A stretch of 46,226 bases of DNA, taken from positions 1-46,226 of the forward strand of contig JADFTK010000003.1 in NCBI GenBank assembly GCA_022560375.1, read 5' to 3'. The stretch's first letter is position 1. Every line of letters begins with the position of its first letter. Shown here piece after piece: positions 17,633-24,179 of the stretch. The notes beneath the pieces were generated by a model. That model did no database searches and was not told the origin of the DNA. It was given only the letters and a program-made list of their open reading frames with translations. This DNA comes from Patescibacteria group bacterium (GTDB lineage: Bacteria > Patescibacteriota > Patescibacteriia > UBA10025 > JAHIVO01). The translations under genes were made by a program, and so were the position numbers.

Positions 17633-18661
17633 TTAGACCAGCTTATCCTGCAAATTCTGGGGAAAATCTTTGCCTAAATGCTCATAGGCAGACTCGGTGA
17701 CTACCCGACCCCTAGCGGTGCGAGCTAAAAACCCCACCTGCATTAAATAAGGCTCATGGACTTCCTCGACAGTCGATTGCTCCTCGGATATGGCAGCGGC
17801 AATAGTGTTTAAACCAACCGGACCGCCATTGAATTTATCGATGATAATGATTAAGATTGCCCGATCTATATTATCTAGACCAAACTTATCAATTTCCAAT
17901 TTTTTTAATGCCTCAATGGCAATCTGGCCCGTAACTTCTCCGTTGCTTTCAACTTGGGCATAATCTCGAACTCTCTTTAATAATCGATTGGCAATCCTCG
18001 GCGTTTTTCTGGAGCGCTTAGCAATTTCTCCCAGAGCCTCATTATCAACCGGGATGCCCAGAATTTCAGAGGAGCGTTTTAATATTTTCTTTATGTCCTC
18101 ATCCTTATAAAAATCCAATCGATAAACATTACCAAAACGATCGCGCAGTGGTGAAGAAATAAGGTTAACCCGTGTCGTAGCTCCTACCAAAGTAAATTTT
18201 GGCAAATCTAAACGTAATGTTTTAGCGGAAGGCCCCTTGCCCACTACAATGTCCAGAGCGTATTCTTCCATGGCCGGATAAAGAACCTCCTCGATTAATC
18301 GATTGAGTCGGTGGATTTCATCTATAAATAAAATGTCCCCATCATCTAAATTAGTAATGATGGCTCCCAGGTCTCCGGCTTTCTCAATGGCCGGGCCAGA
18401 GGTAACTCGGATATTTGACCCATTTTCGGAAGCGATAATATGAGCTAGCGTAGTTTTACCTATGCCGGGCGGACCATGTAAAAGTACGTGTTCTAAAGAT
18501 TCATTCCGTTTCTTGGCCGCCGCCATGAATATTTTCAAATTACTTTTTATAGTATCTTGGCCAATAAAATCTTTTAAATTCTTTGGACGCAAAGTAAGAT
18601 CAAATATTTGATCATCTGGTTTTTCACTCTGGGCCACAACCCTATTGCTGGTATCAGCCAT
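17633..18661 (-). CDS. ruvB: Holliday junction branch migration helicase RuvB
   Basis: LRP...[51 protein letters not shown]. Confidence 0.97.
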
Positions 18662-18670
18662 GAAAAAAAT

Positions 18671-19681
18671 TTATTTACGCCTATTTTTTCTCTTAGTAGT
18701 AATCTTTTTAGACTTTTTAATTCTAGATACTCGGATCAGTCCAGAACAAGGGATAATTTCAATCCCTTTTTTCTCTAGCTCATCTAAAAAGAGGTTCATG
18801 CCCAATGAATCCGAGGACATATGCCCGACCACGATAACATTGATGTGATGTTTTTCCGCCTCCTTCTTATGATCCTCCTTCATGTGCATGCCAATTATTG
18901 TCCCAATCCCAGCTTGGGCTAAACGGCCATACATTTCTTTTGACCCCTCGGTACCACCAGTTACTTCGGTAACCGCTATTTTGCCTGCGTACCGATCTTC
19001 ACTACCAGCGTACAACACCGGGCCAGATTTCAATTTAGTTGCAATTTGATACTCGGGGATATCATCAAAGAGTTTCATAATATCTCCCACGGTCTCAATA
19101 TTCTTTTGATGACGATCAATTAAATTCTTGAGAAAAGTAGCCACCATATTGTCTGAAGCTGTATGTACGCACATTAGAGGAAACCCCAAAAGATTAGCCG
19201 AGTCTATAACTCGCTGATGATTATACGGATCAATTGAACGTGAGACTTCACTCACCCTAATCTGCATCAAGGATTCAGCTATATTGATTGGCACACCATG
19301 CAAAGCCATAACCTCAGCCTGCAAATGCATAACCTCATGCAGTCCGGCCAGGGCAATGCCAATCGGGTGATGAGACATGACTAAATCAATTGGCTTACCG
19401 CCGTCTGTTAATTCCTTGGCTAATAATACCTCCTCAGTATCTAAATCAATACCAACTAACAACCTTTTTATCTGCTGGTCAGGATCTTTAGCGAAATACC
19501 TGGTATCAGAGTACGGATTGGTCAAATTTTCTTTATCATATGTTTTTTTCTCCTCAGCTGAAAGTTTTTCGTACTTCTCATTTTCTCTTTTTAGCTTCCT
19601 TCTGACTGCAGCTACGCCACGTAAATCATTTTGAGTACCAAGTTTTATAGCCAGCTCGTAAATTTGTTTGATAGTCATCAT
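18671..19681 (-). CDS. NIF3-like (DUF34) metal-binding protein
   Basis: NPYSDTR, VGID, SHHP, HTASDN, GMHM, GHMSSDSLGMN. Confidence 0.8.
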   Translation of the reverse strand: MMTIKQIYELAIKLGTQNDLRGVAAVRRKLKRENEKYEKLSAEEKKTYDKENLTNPYSDTRYFAKDPDQQIKRLLVGIDLDTEEVLLAKELTDGGKPIDLVMSHHPIGIALAGLHEVMHLQAEVMALHGVPINIAESLMQIRVSEVSRSIDPYNHQRVIDSANLLGFPLMCVHTASDNMVATFLKNLIDRHQKNIETVGDIMKLFDDIPEYQIATKLKSGPVLYAGSEDRYAGKIAVTEVTGGTEGSKEMYGRLAQAGIGTIIGMHMKEDHKKEAEKHHINVIVVGHMSSDSLGMNLFLDELEKKGIEIIPCSGLIRVSRIKKSKKITTKRKNRRK

Positions 19682-19742
19682 ATTTAATTTTTTTAGTTTT
19701 TAATTATTAATCGTAACGACATAATAACATTTTATTTACCCC

Positions 19743-19787
19743 TTGACAAGTTCCTCCACGCATGCTAATCTTGTCAGTTCTTTAATA
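19743..19787 (+). promoter_or_regulatory. Sigma70 promoter with a boxA-like sequence at the TSS
   Basis: TTGACA(19743)-17 bp-TAATCT with extended TG; GTTCTTTAATA at 19777. Confidence 0.7.
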
Positions 19788-19840
19788 TAAAAAGTTTTCT
19801 CCCCTTTAGTTAGTTTATTTTGGGGGGGAGGAAATAAACT

Positions 19841-20044
19841 ACAATAGCGGCCAGAATTTACACTTCACTTGCTAATTAGCAATGCTAAAGCTGCGCCCAA
19901 CGACCTGCAGTCACGACAAGCATGGGGGTTGTTTATAGGATTCTCGGGGTTTTTCTCTGATTCTTCCTATAAACAATCTTCTTGACTGCAGATCGTTAGG
20001 CGTATTATCATAAAGTGAACCTTAAATTCTGGCTATTATTTTGT
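19841..20044 (+). ncRNA. Rod-shaped structured RNA, 6S RNA-like candidate
   Basis: Nested stems 19849-19860/20023-20034, 19864-19870/20013-20019, 19892-19913/19983-20004, 19925-19940/19965-19980; central bubble; G-U pairs favour the + strand. Confidence 0.6.
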
Positions 20045-20093
20045 AAACAAGCTAGAGCACGTTGAAAATACAATACTCAATCAAGGAGGATTT

Positions 20094-20222
20094 ATGTTGG
20101 ATTGGGTCATCGAACACTGGTGGCAAAGTCTGCTAGGACTATTAGCCATTGCCTTTACCTACTTTTGGCTGTTCTGCATATTTCGCAGTTCAGGTAGGAG
20201 AACGCCGACTCAGAACAATTGA
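20094..20222 (+). CDS. 42-aa single-TM micropeptide (not in ORF track)
   Basis: AAGGAGGA SD; MLDWVIEHWWQSLLGLLAIAFTYFWLFCIFRSSGRRTPTQNN. Confidence 0.65.
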   Translation: MLDWVIEHWWQSLLGLLAIAFTYFWLFCIFRSSGRRTPTQNN

Positions 20223-20256
20223 AACAAAAATATAACTCTAACCAAAGGAGATTTTT

Positions 20257-20382
20257 ATGGGAGCCTGGATTCCTTATCTCGTACTCGTTGTATTCGTGGG
20301 ACTGCTAGCCTACGCCAAGTACCACAAGAACAACGCCAACATCAGACTGGGTGGAAACACTCAAAAAAACGGAGGTTCGTAA
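20257..20382 (+). CDS. 41-aa single-TM micropeptide (not in ORF track)
   Basis: AAAGGAG SD; MGAWIPYLVLVVFVGLLAYAKYHKNNANIRLGGNTQKNGGS. Confidence 0.65.
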   Translation: MGAWIPYLVLVVFVGLLAYAKYHKNNANIRLGGNTQKNGGS

Positions 20383-20383
20383 T

Positions 20384-20866
20384 ATGGATCCTCTCATGAA
20401 TGGTCTACACAATGGCACCTACATCGTCGTGATGTTATTGTCGTTGATTATCTACCACAAAGCCAAGCAAAGAGGCTGGATAATGTGGGGCTCGGTAATG
20501 GCCGTTCTTTTCACATTACTATCTTTCTCAGTGGGTGAAATGCACCTAGACTTTGCCAAGGATATCATGTCACTGGGTGGAGCCGAATATTCTAAGATGA
20601 TAATAACTGGATTTGGTCCGCTGGGAATCGTTATTACCTTAGGGCTAGTTATCCTGGCAGTGCTTAAAAAGAGGGGTGGCACTCCTATTCTTCGGGCAAA
20701 TGCCTGCTTGATGTTAATTGCAGGGCTGGCCACCGTTTCTGGCTCCTACTGGAATCACGCCTTCTCCAGTAAACCAGCAACAGCCATAGCGGTAACGCTA
20801 CAAGACTGGGCTGTTACTTTCCTATATTCCACGGGCGACTTTATTAGCTCAATTTCTTTGGGCTAG
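20384..20866 (+). CDS. Hypothetical multi-TM membrane protein (~160 aa)
   Basis: GGAGG SD before ATG 20384, 1 nt after the upstream stop; ~4 hydrophobic segments. Confidence 0.7.
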   Translation: MDPLMNGLHNGTYIVVMLLSLIIYHKAKQRGWIMWGSVMAVLFTLLSFSVGEMHLDFAKDIMSLGGAEYSKMIITGFGPLGIVITLGLVILAVLKKRGGTPILRANACLMLIAGLATVSGSYWNHAFSSKPATAIAVTLQDWAVTFLYSTGDFISSISLG

Positions 20867-20969
20867 TACTCTCCTACTAACCTTTAACACTAAAGGTTAC
20901 GCACATGGCACGTTGTCTATAGCGACGACCTTTTCCATAGGATTGGAAAAACAATGTACCTACCACAAT

Positions 20970-21010
20970 AAAACCCCCTTCACAATCATGTGACTGGGGG
21001 TTTTCTTTTT
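20970..21010. terminator. Bidirectional terminator
   Basis: AAAACCCCC..TCACA/TGTGA..GGGGGTTTT plus T-run. Confidence 0.75.
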
Positions 21011-21020
21011 TGTGCCAAAA

Positions 21021-22865
21021 TTATTGTGCCCCGCCAATCGCTTCTACATCTGGGTTGATCTCTTCAACCCCAATCAAACAAACTTCCTGCCACGGTACGT
21101 AATGGCTACGAAACTCATCCAGATTGGTGGTTCCATCGGCGTACGTAATAGTCCTGGTAAAAACAGTATCCACACCATCGTGAGCACGCTCCGTACATTT
21201 TTTCACCCCCGGGGCTAAATCTGTAGTTTCAATCAGTTTAGCTGGGGGGGGTTTCACAATATTAAAAACACGAGGTTTAGTTTGCTCTACCTGGCGACCA
21301 TCAGCCGTTCCATAGAATCTAAATACTAAATCATCGCCGTCAATTTCAGTGGTAAGTAATACATGGTTTTCAGTATCATTAATAAATTTAAAATCAGGTG
21401 CTGGGTCATAAATGGTGGCATCAGTCCCAACCGGCTCATAATAAGCCACTCGATAAGAATGATTGCGACGGGCCGTGACATCCAATCCCGCATCTAATAC
21501 CGCACGAAAGGTAGTGGTGCTAACCTGGCATAAACCCCCACCATACTCTGGGATTGTTTTATTCCCTTTGATGACTAGCTCCTGCCGGTAACCAGAAGAA
21601 GCATCAATTTCACCCAACGCCCCAATTAATGAAAATTCCTCTCCCGGGGCAATTAATAGCCCATTAAGAGCAGCTGCACCAATCGCTATATTATGACGAC
21701 GGTTTGCTGGACTACCAGTAAAATTTGAGCGGCCCTCACCCAGCAGTTCCTTAATACCTAAATCATTAACCTCCCCATCCACTGACTCCGGCTCTACTTC
21801 AGCCACTATTAAATCAATGGCTTTAACACCGACTTGGACGATTTTTTGATCTACTTGCTGGGCAGTTGAGAATATCTGCAAGGCCAACCCTTGCTGGGGT
21901 AGTTGAAATTCGCTAACTCTACCATCAGCTATGGAGAATTTTGCTTCTTTCACCTCGACATCAATTTCCGCAGCGATGTCCTCTAAATATTGGTAGAACA
22001 TTTCGCTATTTAGACCTACCGTAACCAGACTATCTACTTTTCGTAATTCTAGCCACTCCTGAACCTGATCGTAAGTTATGGGCCAGGATTTGTCCTCGTA
22101 GACGAGGCTAAACGGAGCTGCCGCCAATACTTGATTAGCGGTAGCCAGGGCAGCCTCGGCAGATGACTGGGTAATATCCGGCACATCTTTATTTAAAGCC
22201 ATAAAGACGGGGCCGTCCTCCAATTTTGTTAATATATCTACTAATTGATTGACGGCCGCGTCGTAGTCAAAGGCTGTGCCACTCGCTTCTGGGGAAGTAG
22301 TAATATTTCCCTCATCATCAATGACGATAGCCGCATCAATAGCTGGCGTTTCATACTGCCCTAGTTCTTCTTGGAGAGATTCAATAAGGACCGTAGATTC
22401 TACCACCAAGACTGGTTTTACTTGCCAGCCTGTTACCCAATTAAAAATATGCTCCATCTCGCTTTGCTGCAGGCTATCAGCAAGTAATTGATCAATGGTA
22501 GCGTCAACATCATAGAATATGATAGGTAAGGCTAACTCAGAATTTGCCTGGTCGCCAACGATTGACTGTATAGCATAAATTTTATTATTAAAGCTAATAG
22601 TAATATCTCGATCCGCTAGGGCATTAGTCGCCTCTACCAAAATATCCTTAGCTTGCTCATAGGTCATGCCGCTTAGATCGATATTACCAATGCTAGTACC
22701 GGGGAAAATTTTATTAGCATAGCGGGCATTAAAGGAAAACACAAAAATAATTGTAGCGGCGCCCACGAATAGCAAGCTGGCCAGGGTAATCAGAACACCT
22801 CGCTGACCACTCGGCTGGGATGCTCCCTTCGTACTTTTTCTCTTTTGTTTTTTATTATGTCTCAT
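21021..22865 (-). CDS. VanW-family protein with PG_binding_4 repeats
   Basis: N-terminal TM; IDLSGMT.EQA; RRHNI..GA..LNG.LI.PGEEFS; GGGLCQVSTT.F; RRNHSY; GTDATIY. Confidence 0.9.
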   Translation of the reverse strand: MRHNKKQKRKSTKGASQPSGQRGVLITLASLLFVGAATIIFVFSFNARYANKIFPGTSIGNIDLSGMTYEQAKDILVEATNALADRDITISFNNKIYAIQSIVGDQANSELALPIIFYDVDATIDQLLADSLQQSEMEHIFNWVTGWQVKPVLVVESTVLIESLQEELGQYETPAIDAAIVIDDEGNITTSPEASGTAFDYDAAVNQLVDILTKLEDGPVFMALNKDVPDITQSSAEAALATANQVLAAAPFSLVYEDKSWPITYDQVQEWLELRKVDSLVTVGLNSEMFYQYLEDIAAEIDVEVKEAKFSIADGRVSEFQLPQQGLALQIFSTAQQVDQKIVQVGVKAIDLIVAEVEPESVDGEVNDLGIKELLGEGRSNFTGSPANRRHNIAIGAAALNGLLIAPGEEFSLIGALGEIDASSGYRQELVIKGNKTIPEYGGGLCQVSTTTFRAVLDAGLDVTARRNHSYRVAYYEPVGTDATIYDPAPDFKFINDTENHVLLTTEIDGDDLVFRFYGTADGRQVEQTKPRVFNIVKPPPAKLIETTDLAPGVKKCTERAHDGVDTVFTRTITYADGTTNLDEFRSHYVPWQEVCLIGVEEINPDVEAIGGAQ

Positions 22866-23850: not shown

Positions 23851-24090
23851 ATGTATTACGTGTATATTCTAAAAAGTGTAATGAATAACCGTTTATATAT
23901 TGGAAGCACTAATGACGTTAATCGTAGAATTTTAGAACATAACAATGGAAATGTTAGTTCTACAAAAGCCTATATACCTTATAAATTAATTAAAATAGAA
24001 AAGTTTTTAAATAAAAAAGGCGCACTTAAAAGAGAATTTCAGATTAAAAAATCAGGGATACTTCGCCAGCAATTAAAACAACTTAATTAA
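23851..24090 (+). CDS. Small stand-alone GIY-YIG nuclease
   Basis: YYVYIL...LYIGST..V.RRI.EHN.G...STK...P...E......A..RE..IK. Confidence 0.9.
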   Translation: MYYVYILKSVMNNRLYIGSTNDVNRRILEHNNGNVSSTKAYIPYKLIKIEKFLNKKGALKREFQIKKSGILRQQLKQLN

Positions 24091-24101
24091 CCATAACCTA
24101 T

Positions 24102-24179
24102 GGCGCCTTCGTCTAGCCTGGTCCAGGACACCACGCTTTCAATGTGGTAACACGGGTTCAAATCCCGTAGGCGCTACCA
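24102..24179 (+). tRNA. tRNA-Glu (TTC)
   Basis: Acceptor GGCGCCT/AGGCGCT, anticodon arm CCACG-CTTTCAA-TGTGG, T-loop GGTTCAAATCC, encoded CCA. Confidence 0.93.

Follow-up and report, generated by a model that had tools for sequence, protein, structure and literature searches.

The 46,226-nt stretch of Patescibacteria DNA analyzed here (contig JADFTK010000003.1; the window) encodes on its plus strand, at 19840–20045, a rod-shaped RNA. This rod is a real, conserved, single-copy RNA gene of a family that is not in Rfam 15. Its conserved core (19890–20011), defined by covariation and by a covariance model termed R1, consists of a closing stem P0, helix P1, a bulge, helix P2 and an apical domain. 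From its sequence features we tentatively favor a stand-alone small RNA (sRNA) that would act in trans by binding a protein, and rate this reading at a little below an even chance.

The stretch 19838–20052 (+) folds at -88.3 kcal/mol with a z-score of -10.99, and none of 200 shuffled sequences was as stable; a wider stretch, 19775–20095, gave a z-score of -10.5. The minimum free energy (MFE) fold of the rod in this genome has 78 base pairs between 19840 and 20045, and the rod was also found as an inverted repeat. An initial annotation of the window had described a rod-shaped RNA of ~200 nt with about 57 paired positions counted by hand; the rod is borne out by the fold, and the pair count was too low. 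The fold of the plus strand is 8.6 kcal/mol more stable than that of the minus strand. The conserved G-U pairs, one of which is GU in 99 of the 106 rows of the model-fitted alignment described below, place the RNA on the plus strand. Model R1 scores 112 bits on the plus strand of the window core and 29.6 bits on the minus strand, a difference that is partly circular because R1 was built on the plus strand.

The consensus structure is an unbranched hairpin of ~120 nt, in which P0 and P1 together make a closing helix of 22 bp, with the apical domain above it. The irregular part lies on one side only: 10 nt bulge out of the 5' strand opposite a single nucleotide, and there is no two-sided bubble. 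Typical members in the host's class are ~120–150 nt long, comprising the 123 positions of the model plus a short A/U-rich leader. In the window the rod reaches ~200 nt, or ~270 nt counted from the putative start. Its outer extension (19840–19873 paired with 20013–20045) has counterparts in several loci of the same family, where similar outer-helix pairings were seen by eye. The palindrome TTGCTAATTAGCAA, which the initial annotation placed in a central bubble, is present in a side hairpin (19871–19891, +) of the fold; it belongs to the outer extension, outside the class-wide model, and does not form a conserved bubble. The end of the window rod is A/U-rich and lacks a clean U-tail, which makes read-through into the downstream open reading frames (ORFs) plausible.

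The rod element occurs once in its own 1.1-Mb genome. In BLAST searches the inner ~100 nt turned up in every one of the 16 genomes from the window's family and, within the wider order or class, in 6 of 24 further genomes. In a MAFFT alignment of 23 loci, RNAalifold predicted 40 pairs, of which 30 have compensatory double changes; for example, GUC/GAC is replaced by CUC/GAG, GAC/GUC and CCC/GGG. A model-fitted alignment of 106 distinct rows has pairing bases in 92.6% of the cells, compared with 63.7% in column shuffles and 42–55% in slid controls, and 36 of its 40 pairs change on both sides. This second alignment leans toward the structure of the model; the independent MAFFT alignment agrees with it.

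Model R1 was applied to 151 genomes sampled evenly across the class and to a separate even sample of 151 genomes from the phylum. In the class sample it matched 135/151 genomes, including 127/136 high-quality ones, and 125/137 genera. Nearly always there was one locus per genome among the 135; this distribution, together with the single copy in the window's own genome, rules out a miniature inverted-repeat transposable element (MITE) or another dispersed inverted repeat. Separately, tandem second or partial copies within ~120–220 nt were observed at loci L013, L014, L035, L064, L066, L099, L107 and L118 and in genomes G083, G066 and G126; in L013 and L014 the CACGA segment of the motif described below is missing from the second copy.

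Loci from a motif scan include Falkow-, Uhr-, Magasanik-, Komeili-, Buchanan- and Kerfeldbacteria, which we take to belong to class ABY1 of Patescibacteria in GTDB. This suggests that the hosts of the RNA are ABY1-type Patescibacteria. Outside the class only weak matches were found. In the phylum sample, R1 matched 8/151 genomes, namely the window's own genome, six from the same class and one outsider, and a broader model, R2, matched 12/151, among them three outsiders at 36–46 bits. Two of the out-of-class loci are probable orthologs because they keep a class-like arrangement: in both L183 and L184 the RNA faces a gene for a VanW-domain protein in convergent orientation, and in L184 RuvB occupies the opposite flank. 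A search near VanW in RNA-negative genomes of the class and in 30 phylum-wide VanW loci yielded one weak match (L207, 23.5 bits), with the rod behind VanW.

The most conserved part of the RNA is a near-invariant asymmetric loop flanked by covarying helices. Its 5' side is the motif CACGACAAGCAUGG (19912–19925, +), which contains the 10-nt bulge CGACAAGCAU; its 3' side is UCUUG, the invariant part of the conserved motif CUUCUUG (19978–19984, +). The 14-nt motif CACGACAAGCAUGG is exact in 32 of 37 loci selected by the model, and the other five are each one base off; the 120 loci of the pattern scan cannot be used for this claim, because they were chosen by the motif itself. Spacing between the 5' and 3' motifs is tight, the pattern matches being mostly 72–80 nt long. 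The invariant bases allow two mutually exclusive pairings, either CA/UG with GG/UC, or CAAG/CUUG with CACGA and CAUG as bulges. Covariation cannot choose between them, since the loop bases never vary; the outgroup locus L060 favors pairing of the CAAG/CUUG type. Two to three of the first five pairs of P2 are G-U pairs.

Seed pairing with a target and a coding role were both rejected for the motif. Even when two mismatches were allowed, no complement of the 14-nt motif was found in a meaningful context, and 10-mer wobble matches had no Shine-Dalgarno (SD) context, which argues against a target recognized by seed pairing. Translation from the AUG inside the motif was dismissed by eye, as indels in the apical domain break every reading frame.

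Transcription signals were sought in 159 non-identical loci by scanning the RNA strand up to 89 nt upstream of the model start for sigma-70 promoter matches of at least 10/12, with mononucleotide shuffles as a control. Such matches occur in 76/159 loci and in 2/159 shuffles, and the -10 element mostly ends 13–58 nt ahead of the closing stem. The putative promoter of the window rod (19744–19772, +), recognized by inspection of the sequence, has the -35 box TTGACA (19744–19749), a 17-nt spacer and a weak -10 box, TAATCT (19767–19772). It is not listed by the scan because the -10 box matches the consensus at only three of six positions; of the consensus promoter initially annotated at 19743, the -35 box is thus perfect and the -10 box is not. 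A run of at least four U residues lies 18–45 nt past the CUUG motif, about the end of the closing stem, in 74/159 loci. An A-run precedes the stem in 64/159 and, together with the U-run, gives the layout of a bidirectional terminator. Many other loci have a separate canonical terminator after the RNA (seen by eye). In L007, L009, L011, L019 and L021 a U-run or a terminator comes after the RNA, and the next gene listed downstream is on the opposite strand.

As a side observation on the upstream region, sequences like GGCACGACAAG, or TTGACAAG, occur ~70–80 nt upstream of the core in L013, L015, L017 and L018, and at 19741–19752 in the window. They resemble both the bulge motif and the -35 region of a promoter; many promoters read CTTGACAAG, and the likeness is possibly a coincidence.

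A frozen loop between variable helices, an apical domain of fixed length, a promoter and terminator of its own, and independence from any co-oriented gene together favor a trans-acting, protein-binding sRNA. In signal recognition particle (SRP) RNA, Y RNA and 6S RNA, variable helices combined with a frozen loop mark a scaffold that presents a protein-recognition site. By the same logic, the freely covarying helices of the rod would be a scaffold presenting the invariant loop, and the RNA would most likely serve in trans as a decoy or scaffold that binds a protein, with RNA polymerase as only one candidate partner. In the window's family the rod has grown to ~200 nt and lacks a clean U-tail; in this genome there is probably also a longer transcript, with the RNA as its 5' part and a downstream operon of micropeptide and membrane-protein genes behind it.

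Several observations weigh against this reading. No true RNA library covers the RNA; a single RNA-seq run reaches a piece inside VanW only and is silent on expression. Model R1 did not detect the RNA in 16/151 genomes of the class, nine of them of high quality, so that in some lineages it is either dispensable or diverged beyond detection. The probable out-of-class orthologs lack the 10-nt bulge, which implies that the invariant loop is not needed for the role of the ancestral rod. Finally, the RNA is tightly linked to VanW. The genes flanking the RNA were identified by Pfam scans of flanking ORFs at 35 loci and by tblastn with the VanW C-terminus at 50 loci having 1.5-kb flanks. VanW adjoins the RNA in 39 of these 50 (36 convergent, three upstream on the same strand) as well as in two loci of another class, and such linkage could mean a role in cis. 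These counts overstate the independence of the loci, because ~20 of the 50 come from one family, that of the window. VanW is present without the RNA beside it in four of five RNA-negative genomes of the class that were tested.

Among known RNAs the closest comparison is 6S RNA, and the initial annotation had proposed a divergent 6S RNA of the Candidate Phyla Radiation (CPR). The rod RNA and 6S RNA are both rod-shaped, single-copy, stand-alone RNAs with their own promoter and terminator and with structural conservation across a clade. Membership in the 6S family is nevertheless not supported. Scans with all Rfam 15 models at E ≤ 10, covering window positions 19000–21500 and 20 diverse loci, placed no family at the RNA; the families of the 6S clan were among those without a match. 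In 6S RNA, which is about 150–200 nt long, a closing stem and a terminal stem enclose a large central bubble in which neither strand is paired. The rod RNA instead has a one-sided 10-nt bulge, it has no covariance-model match, and its loop sequence is invariant across the whole class; in size, typically 120–150 nt, it is a borderline case.

A much reduced RNA of the 6S type is a separate proposal, which we consider unlikely while giving it some weight. Through its likeness to an open promoter, such an RNA would sequester sigma-70 RNA polymerase, and it could be the template of a short product RNA; the downstream duplex would correspond to P0 plus P1, the template-strand bubble to the 10-nt bulge together with the G-U-rich start of P2, and the upstream DNA to the apical domain. 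The proposal draws on the existence of a widely conserved, single-copy rod with its own promoter and terminator, and on a vacancy in the genome. The canonical 6S model RF00013 has no match in the window's own genome at E ≤ 10 and none in 21 relatives at E ≤ 1; the 6S slot thus appears empty, since RNase P RNA and transfer-messenger RNA (tmRNA) were found in the same genome by the same method. In addition, the G-U pairs among the first five of P2 could open, and a 120-nt hairpin (~60 bp) is roughly as long as the promoter segment that RNA polymerase occupies. On the other hand, the supposed bubble has just one nucleotide on its 3' side, the typical length falls below the roughly 180–200 nt of 6S RNA, the 6S-clan models are silent both at the window and at the 20 diverse loci, and the outgroup orthologs lack the 10-nt bulge. 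The -35 look-alike TTGAC(T) in the 3' strand is limited to the window's family, and past UUG its bases change together with those of the 5' strand. By eye, only ~4/14 loci of that family have a hexamer like a -10 box at a suitable distance. Since the 6S hallmarks that were tested are absent, we keep this proposal apart from the protein-binding sRNA. The narrower idea that the 3' strand mimics a promoter through TTGACT-N18-TATCAT was rejected for the same two reasons, the covariation of the -35-like bases past UUG and the lack of a general -10-like hexamer.

VanW, a cell-wall gene, is the most regular neighbor of the RNA, which suggests another explanation, namely a cis-acting module tied to VanW, either a bidirectional terminator or insulator, or a source of antisense RNA that tunes VanW through read-through or 3' overlap, in the manner of convergent sRNA–mRNA pairs. 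We regard it as rather improbable. VanW adjoins most loci while the other flank of the RNA varies among RuvB, NIF3, ClpP, M17 peptidase, DHH and SMC, and the arrangement is kept in the two loci of the other class, with RuvB beside one of them. The A-runs before and U-runs after the rod, counted above, would suit a bidirectional terminator, and the VanW locus of one RNA-negative genome has an ordinary terminator hairpin. However, a terminator needs neither a 14-nt invariant loop nor a dedicated promoter, and the constraint on the length of the apical domain likewise goes beyond a plain terminator. In many loci a separate canonical terminator stands between the RNA and the VanW stop codon, which makes overlap of the RNA with VanW often unlikely. 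By estimate, mostly 60–160 nt separate this stop codon from the CUUG motif. The motif is also kept where VanW is ~1 kb away, as in the window, or not adjacent (L026, L028, L034, L050), and the persistence of VanW in RNA-negative genomes again speaks against such a module. As for the neighbor itself, VanW-domain proteins are presumably the new transpeptidase family of Clostridioides difficile. A paper whose title announces a new family of transpeptidases reports that L,D-transpeptidases (LDTs) make 3-3 cross-links in C. difficile (PMC10980060).

In the window, the RNA is separated from VanW by the three hydrophobic ORFs of the initial annotation, all SD-led and on the plus strand. They encode two micropeptides with a single transmembrane (TM) segment, of 42 aa (20094–20222) and 41 aa (20257–20382), and a 160-aa multi-TM membrane protein without a known family (20384–20866). 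SD-led single-TM ORFs of 40–57 aa precede the homologous membrane-protein gene in L012, L013, L017 and L020. By eye, the N-terminal pattern of the 42-aa ORF resembles that of the 53-aa ORFs of L017 and L020, and the 41-aa ORF looks similar to small ORFs in L013 and L012; among the relatives' ORFs, some match the window's peptides in their N-terminal pattern and some in their C-terminal one. BLAST found no homologs of the two micropeptides. An alignment of homologs makes the 160-aa protein a member of a weakly conserved multi-TM family, and Pfam and Atlas searches returned nothing above noise for it. A profile of this family gave clear matches in 4/151 genomes of the class, all four of which supplied proteins to the query alignment, and two marginal ones. 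All four clear matches lie directly downstream of the RNA. In the scanned loci of the family and its relatives, no SD-led hydrophobic ORF follows the RNA in L007, L009, L011, L019 and L021.

Since the membrane-protein genes occur in so few genomes and always behind the RNA, the operon is best described as an insertion that certain lineages have acquired between the RNA and VanW. Control of this operon is not the reason for the existence of the RNA; it is a secondary arrangement in the window's family. The initial proposal of an RNA heading a micropeptide and membrane-protein operon therefore holds within that family, where the ORFs recur, and finds no support as a general role, given four genomes with clear membrane-protein matches against 135 with the RNA. 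Its alternative, an RNA-controlled locus for small membrane peptides, is not supported in general either, because convergent VanW is found downstream in 36/50 loci instead. Inside the 3' strand of the window rod, the segment 19982–20011 (+) reads TTGACT-N18-TATCAT, a 10/12 promoter match, and TACAAT or TATAGT hexamers stand at a similar spacing in L002, L004 and L008. Judged from the sequence, this segment may be an internal promoter of the downstream operon in the window's family.

A further explanation is a ligand- or signal-sensing leader (riboswitch or attenuator), which has a slim chance in our estimate. The invariant loop would be the aptamer and the closing stem with its U-run a conditional terminator; in the window this would gate the operon of micropeptides and membrane protein, and at other loci antisense transcripts that run into VanW. 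In its favor, the loop allows two pairings that exclude each other, the second type being favored by L060, and in the window a rod without a clean U-tail is followed by SD-led ORFs, with the membrane-protein family directly behind the RNA in four of four clear genomes. Yet most loci have no co-oriented downstream gene and face a convergent VanW, no complementarity for an anti-terminator was seen by eye at a few loci with a separate terminator, no Rfam riboswitch class matches the RNA, and nothing known about the downstream gene family hints at a ligand.

The protein-binding sRNA that we favor also has a stronger form, to which we give little credence: the RNA would be a subunit of a new housekeeping ribonucleoprotein (RNP) of ABY1-type Patescibacteria and some sister lineages, distinct from 6S, SRP and Y RNA, with the loop binding a dedicated protein. 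Its boldest version, suggested by the failure to find SRP components and by the persistent linkage to envelope genes (VanW and, in some families, the membrane-protein operon), would be a 4.5S-like hairpin involved in envelope or membrane-protein biogenesis. Like the 4.5S or small SRP RNA (RF00169), the rod RNA is an unbranched hairpin of ~115–120 nt that is present in one copy in nearly all members of its clade and has a conserved internal loop of unequal sides; the asymmetric loop of SRP RNA has a 5' bulge of 4–5 nt. It differs in having no GNRA-type apical tetraloop beside the conserved loops, its apex being ~30 nt per strand away.

SRP RNA itself was dropped as a candidate, because no model matched and the partner proteins Ffh and FtsY were not found. 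Model RF00169 had no match in the window's own genome and none in 21 relatives, and RF01854 had none in the same number of relatives; in controls the SRP RNA models were positive in 13/14 and 11/14 known genomes. The M domain of Ffh (PF02978) was found in 0/41 genomes of the class and 0/151 of the phylum, PF00448 and TIGR00064 (FtsY) had no match in the window's own genome, which is 97% complete, and none of its ORFs carries the motifs of an SRP GTPase; SecY, the positive control, was found there. With no Ffh M domain in the sampled genomes and no SRP-type GTPase in this one, there would be nothing for an SRP RNA to bind. The failure to detect SRP may already be known, or may reflect the limited sensitivity of the filter used in a first-look search. 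The literature covered, which lies outside subscription journals, gave no description of this RNA, of a 6S RNA in Patescibacteria or of SRP loss in the phylum.

Other known classes compare less well. The rod shares with Y RNA a stem with a conserved bulged helix formed from the 5' and 3' parts, and in the window's family its 3' strand contains CUUGAC, a sequence similar to the Ro-binding strand of Y RNAs; in other families, however, the GAC of CUUGAC covaries away. A Y RNA bound to Ro60 (Rsr) was dropped, as the TROVE domain (PF05731) was not found in the window's own genome and neither Y RNA nor YrlA had an Rfam match. With the OLE, raiA, ROOL and GOLLD classes the rod has in common restriction to a clade, strong covariation and invariant loops suggestive of protein or ligand contacts. 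OLE RNA has membrane-protein partners, and the neighborhood of the rod hints at envelope or membrane genes. In contrast to these classes, the rod RNA is much smaller, unbranched and found in Patescibacteria, and it has no sequence or model similarity to them. The type I toxin-antitoxin pairs of Bacillus likewise have a small RNA gene that is convergent with a protein gene and ends near it, and hydrophobic peptides are encoded nearby in the window. A type I locus was rejected, because the RNA lies upstream of the micropeptide genes on the same strand, not opposite to them, without antisense overlap; moreover, the micropeptides are missing from most RNA-bearing genomes, and the sequence invariance of the rod far exceeds what antisense pairing needs.

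Much of bacterial diversity belongs to the CPR/Patescibacteria, and almost nothing is known of their non-coding RNAs. Here a near-universal, single-copy RNA of one class has a 14-nt loop that is almost fixed across roughly 90 families. If it were a minimal 6S RNA, it would show how far the promoter-mimic design can shrink; if not, it would be an orphan RNP or sensor in genomes of ~1 Mb that retain little without need. Models R1 and R2 provide a handle for metatranscriptome mapping and for pull-downs. The failure to detect SRP, if upheld and not already known, bears on membrane-protein targeting in these bacteria.

The remaining features of the locus frame the RNA and its operon. Upstream, RuvB (17633–18661) and a NIF3-family gene (18671–19681) occupy 17633–19681 on the minus strand, divergent from the RNA, and are a frequent 5' neighbor of it. 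The short C/G hairpin initially annotated at 19793–19840 was recovered in the MFE fold of this genome as a 16-bp, C/G-rich leader hairpin at 19794–19835 (+), outside the class-wide model. Contigs of other runs differ by single bases at three positions of the leader and of the rod's 5' strand (19792 A>T, 19856 A>T and 19898 C>T). Downstream, the operon ends at a terminator (20970–21012, +), which was identified from the fold and as an inverted repeat and consists of a hairpin (20970–21004) and a U-run. The stretch 20866–21012 (+) as a whole is structured (z-score of -5.43), which agrees with the structured 3' region and terminator described initially, and in the 3' untranslated region three short hairpins (20866–20965, +) stand ahead of the terminator. 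The terminator abuts the stop codon of the gene for the VanW-domain protein (21021–22865, -), the conserved convergent neighbor of the RNA, and may therefore act in both directions. Farther downstream, a 79-aa ORF (23851–24090, +) has an N-terminus that resembles a GIY-YIG nuclease by eye. Directly after it lies a tRNA-sized stretch (24102–24179, +) that gave a weak match (20 bits) to the tmRNA model and is probably a tRNA gene.

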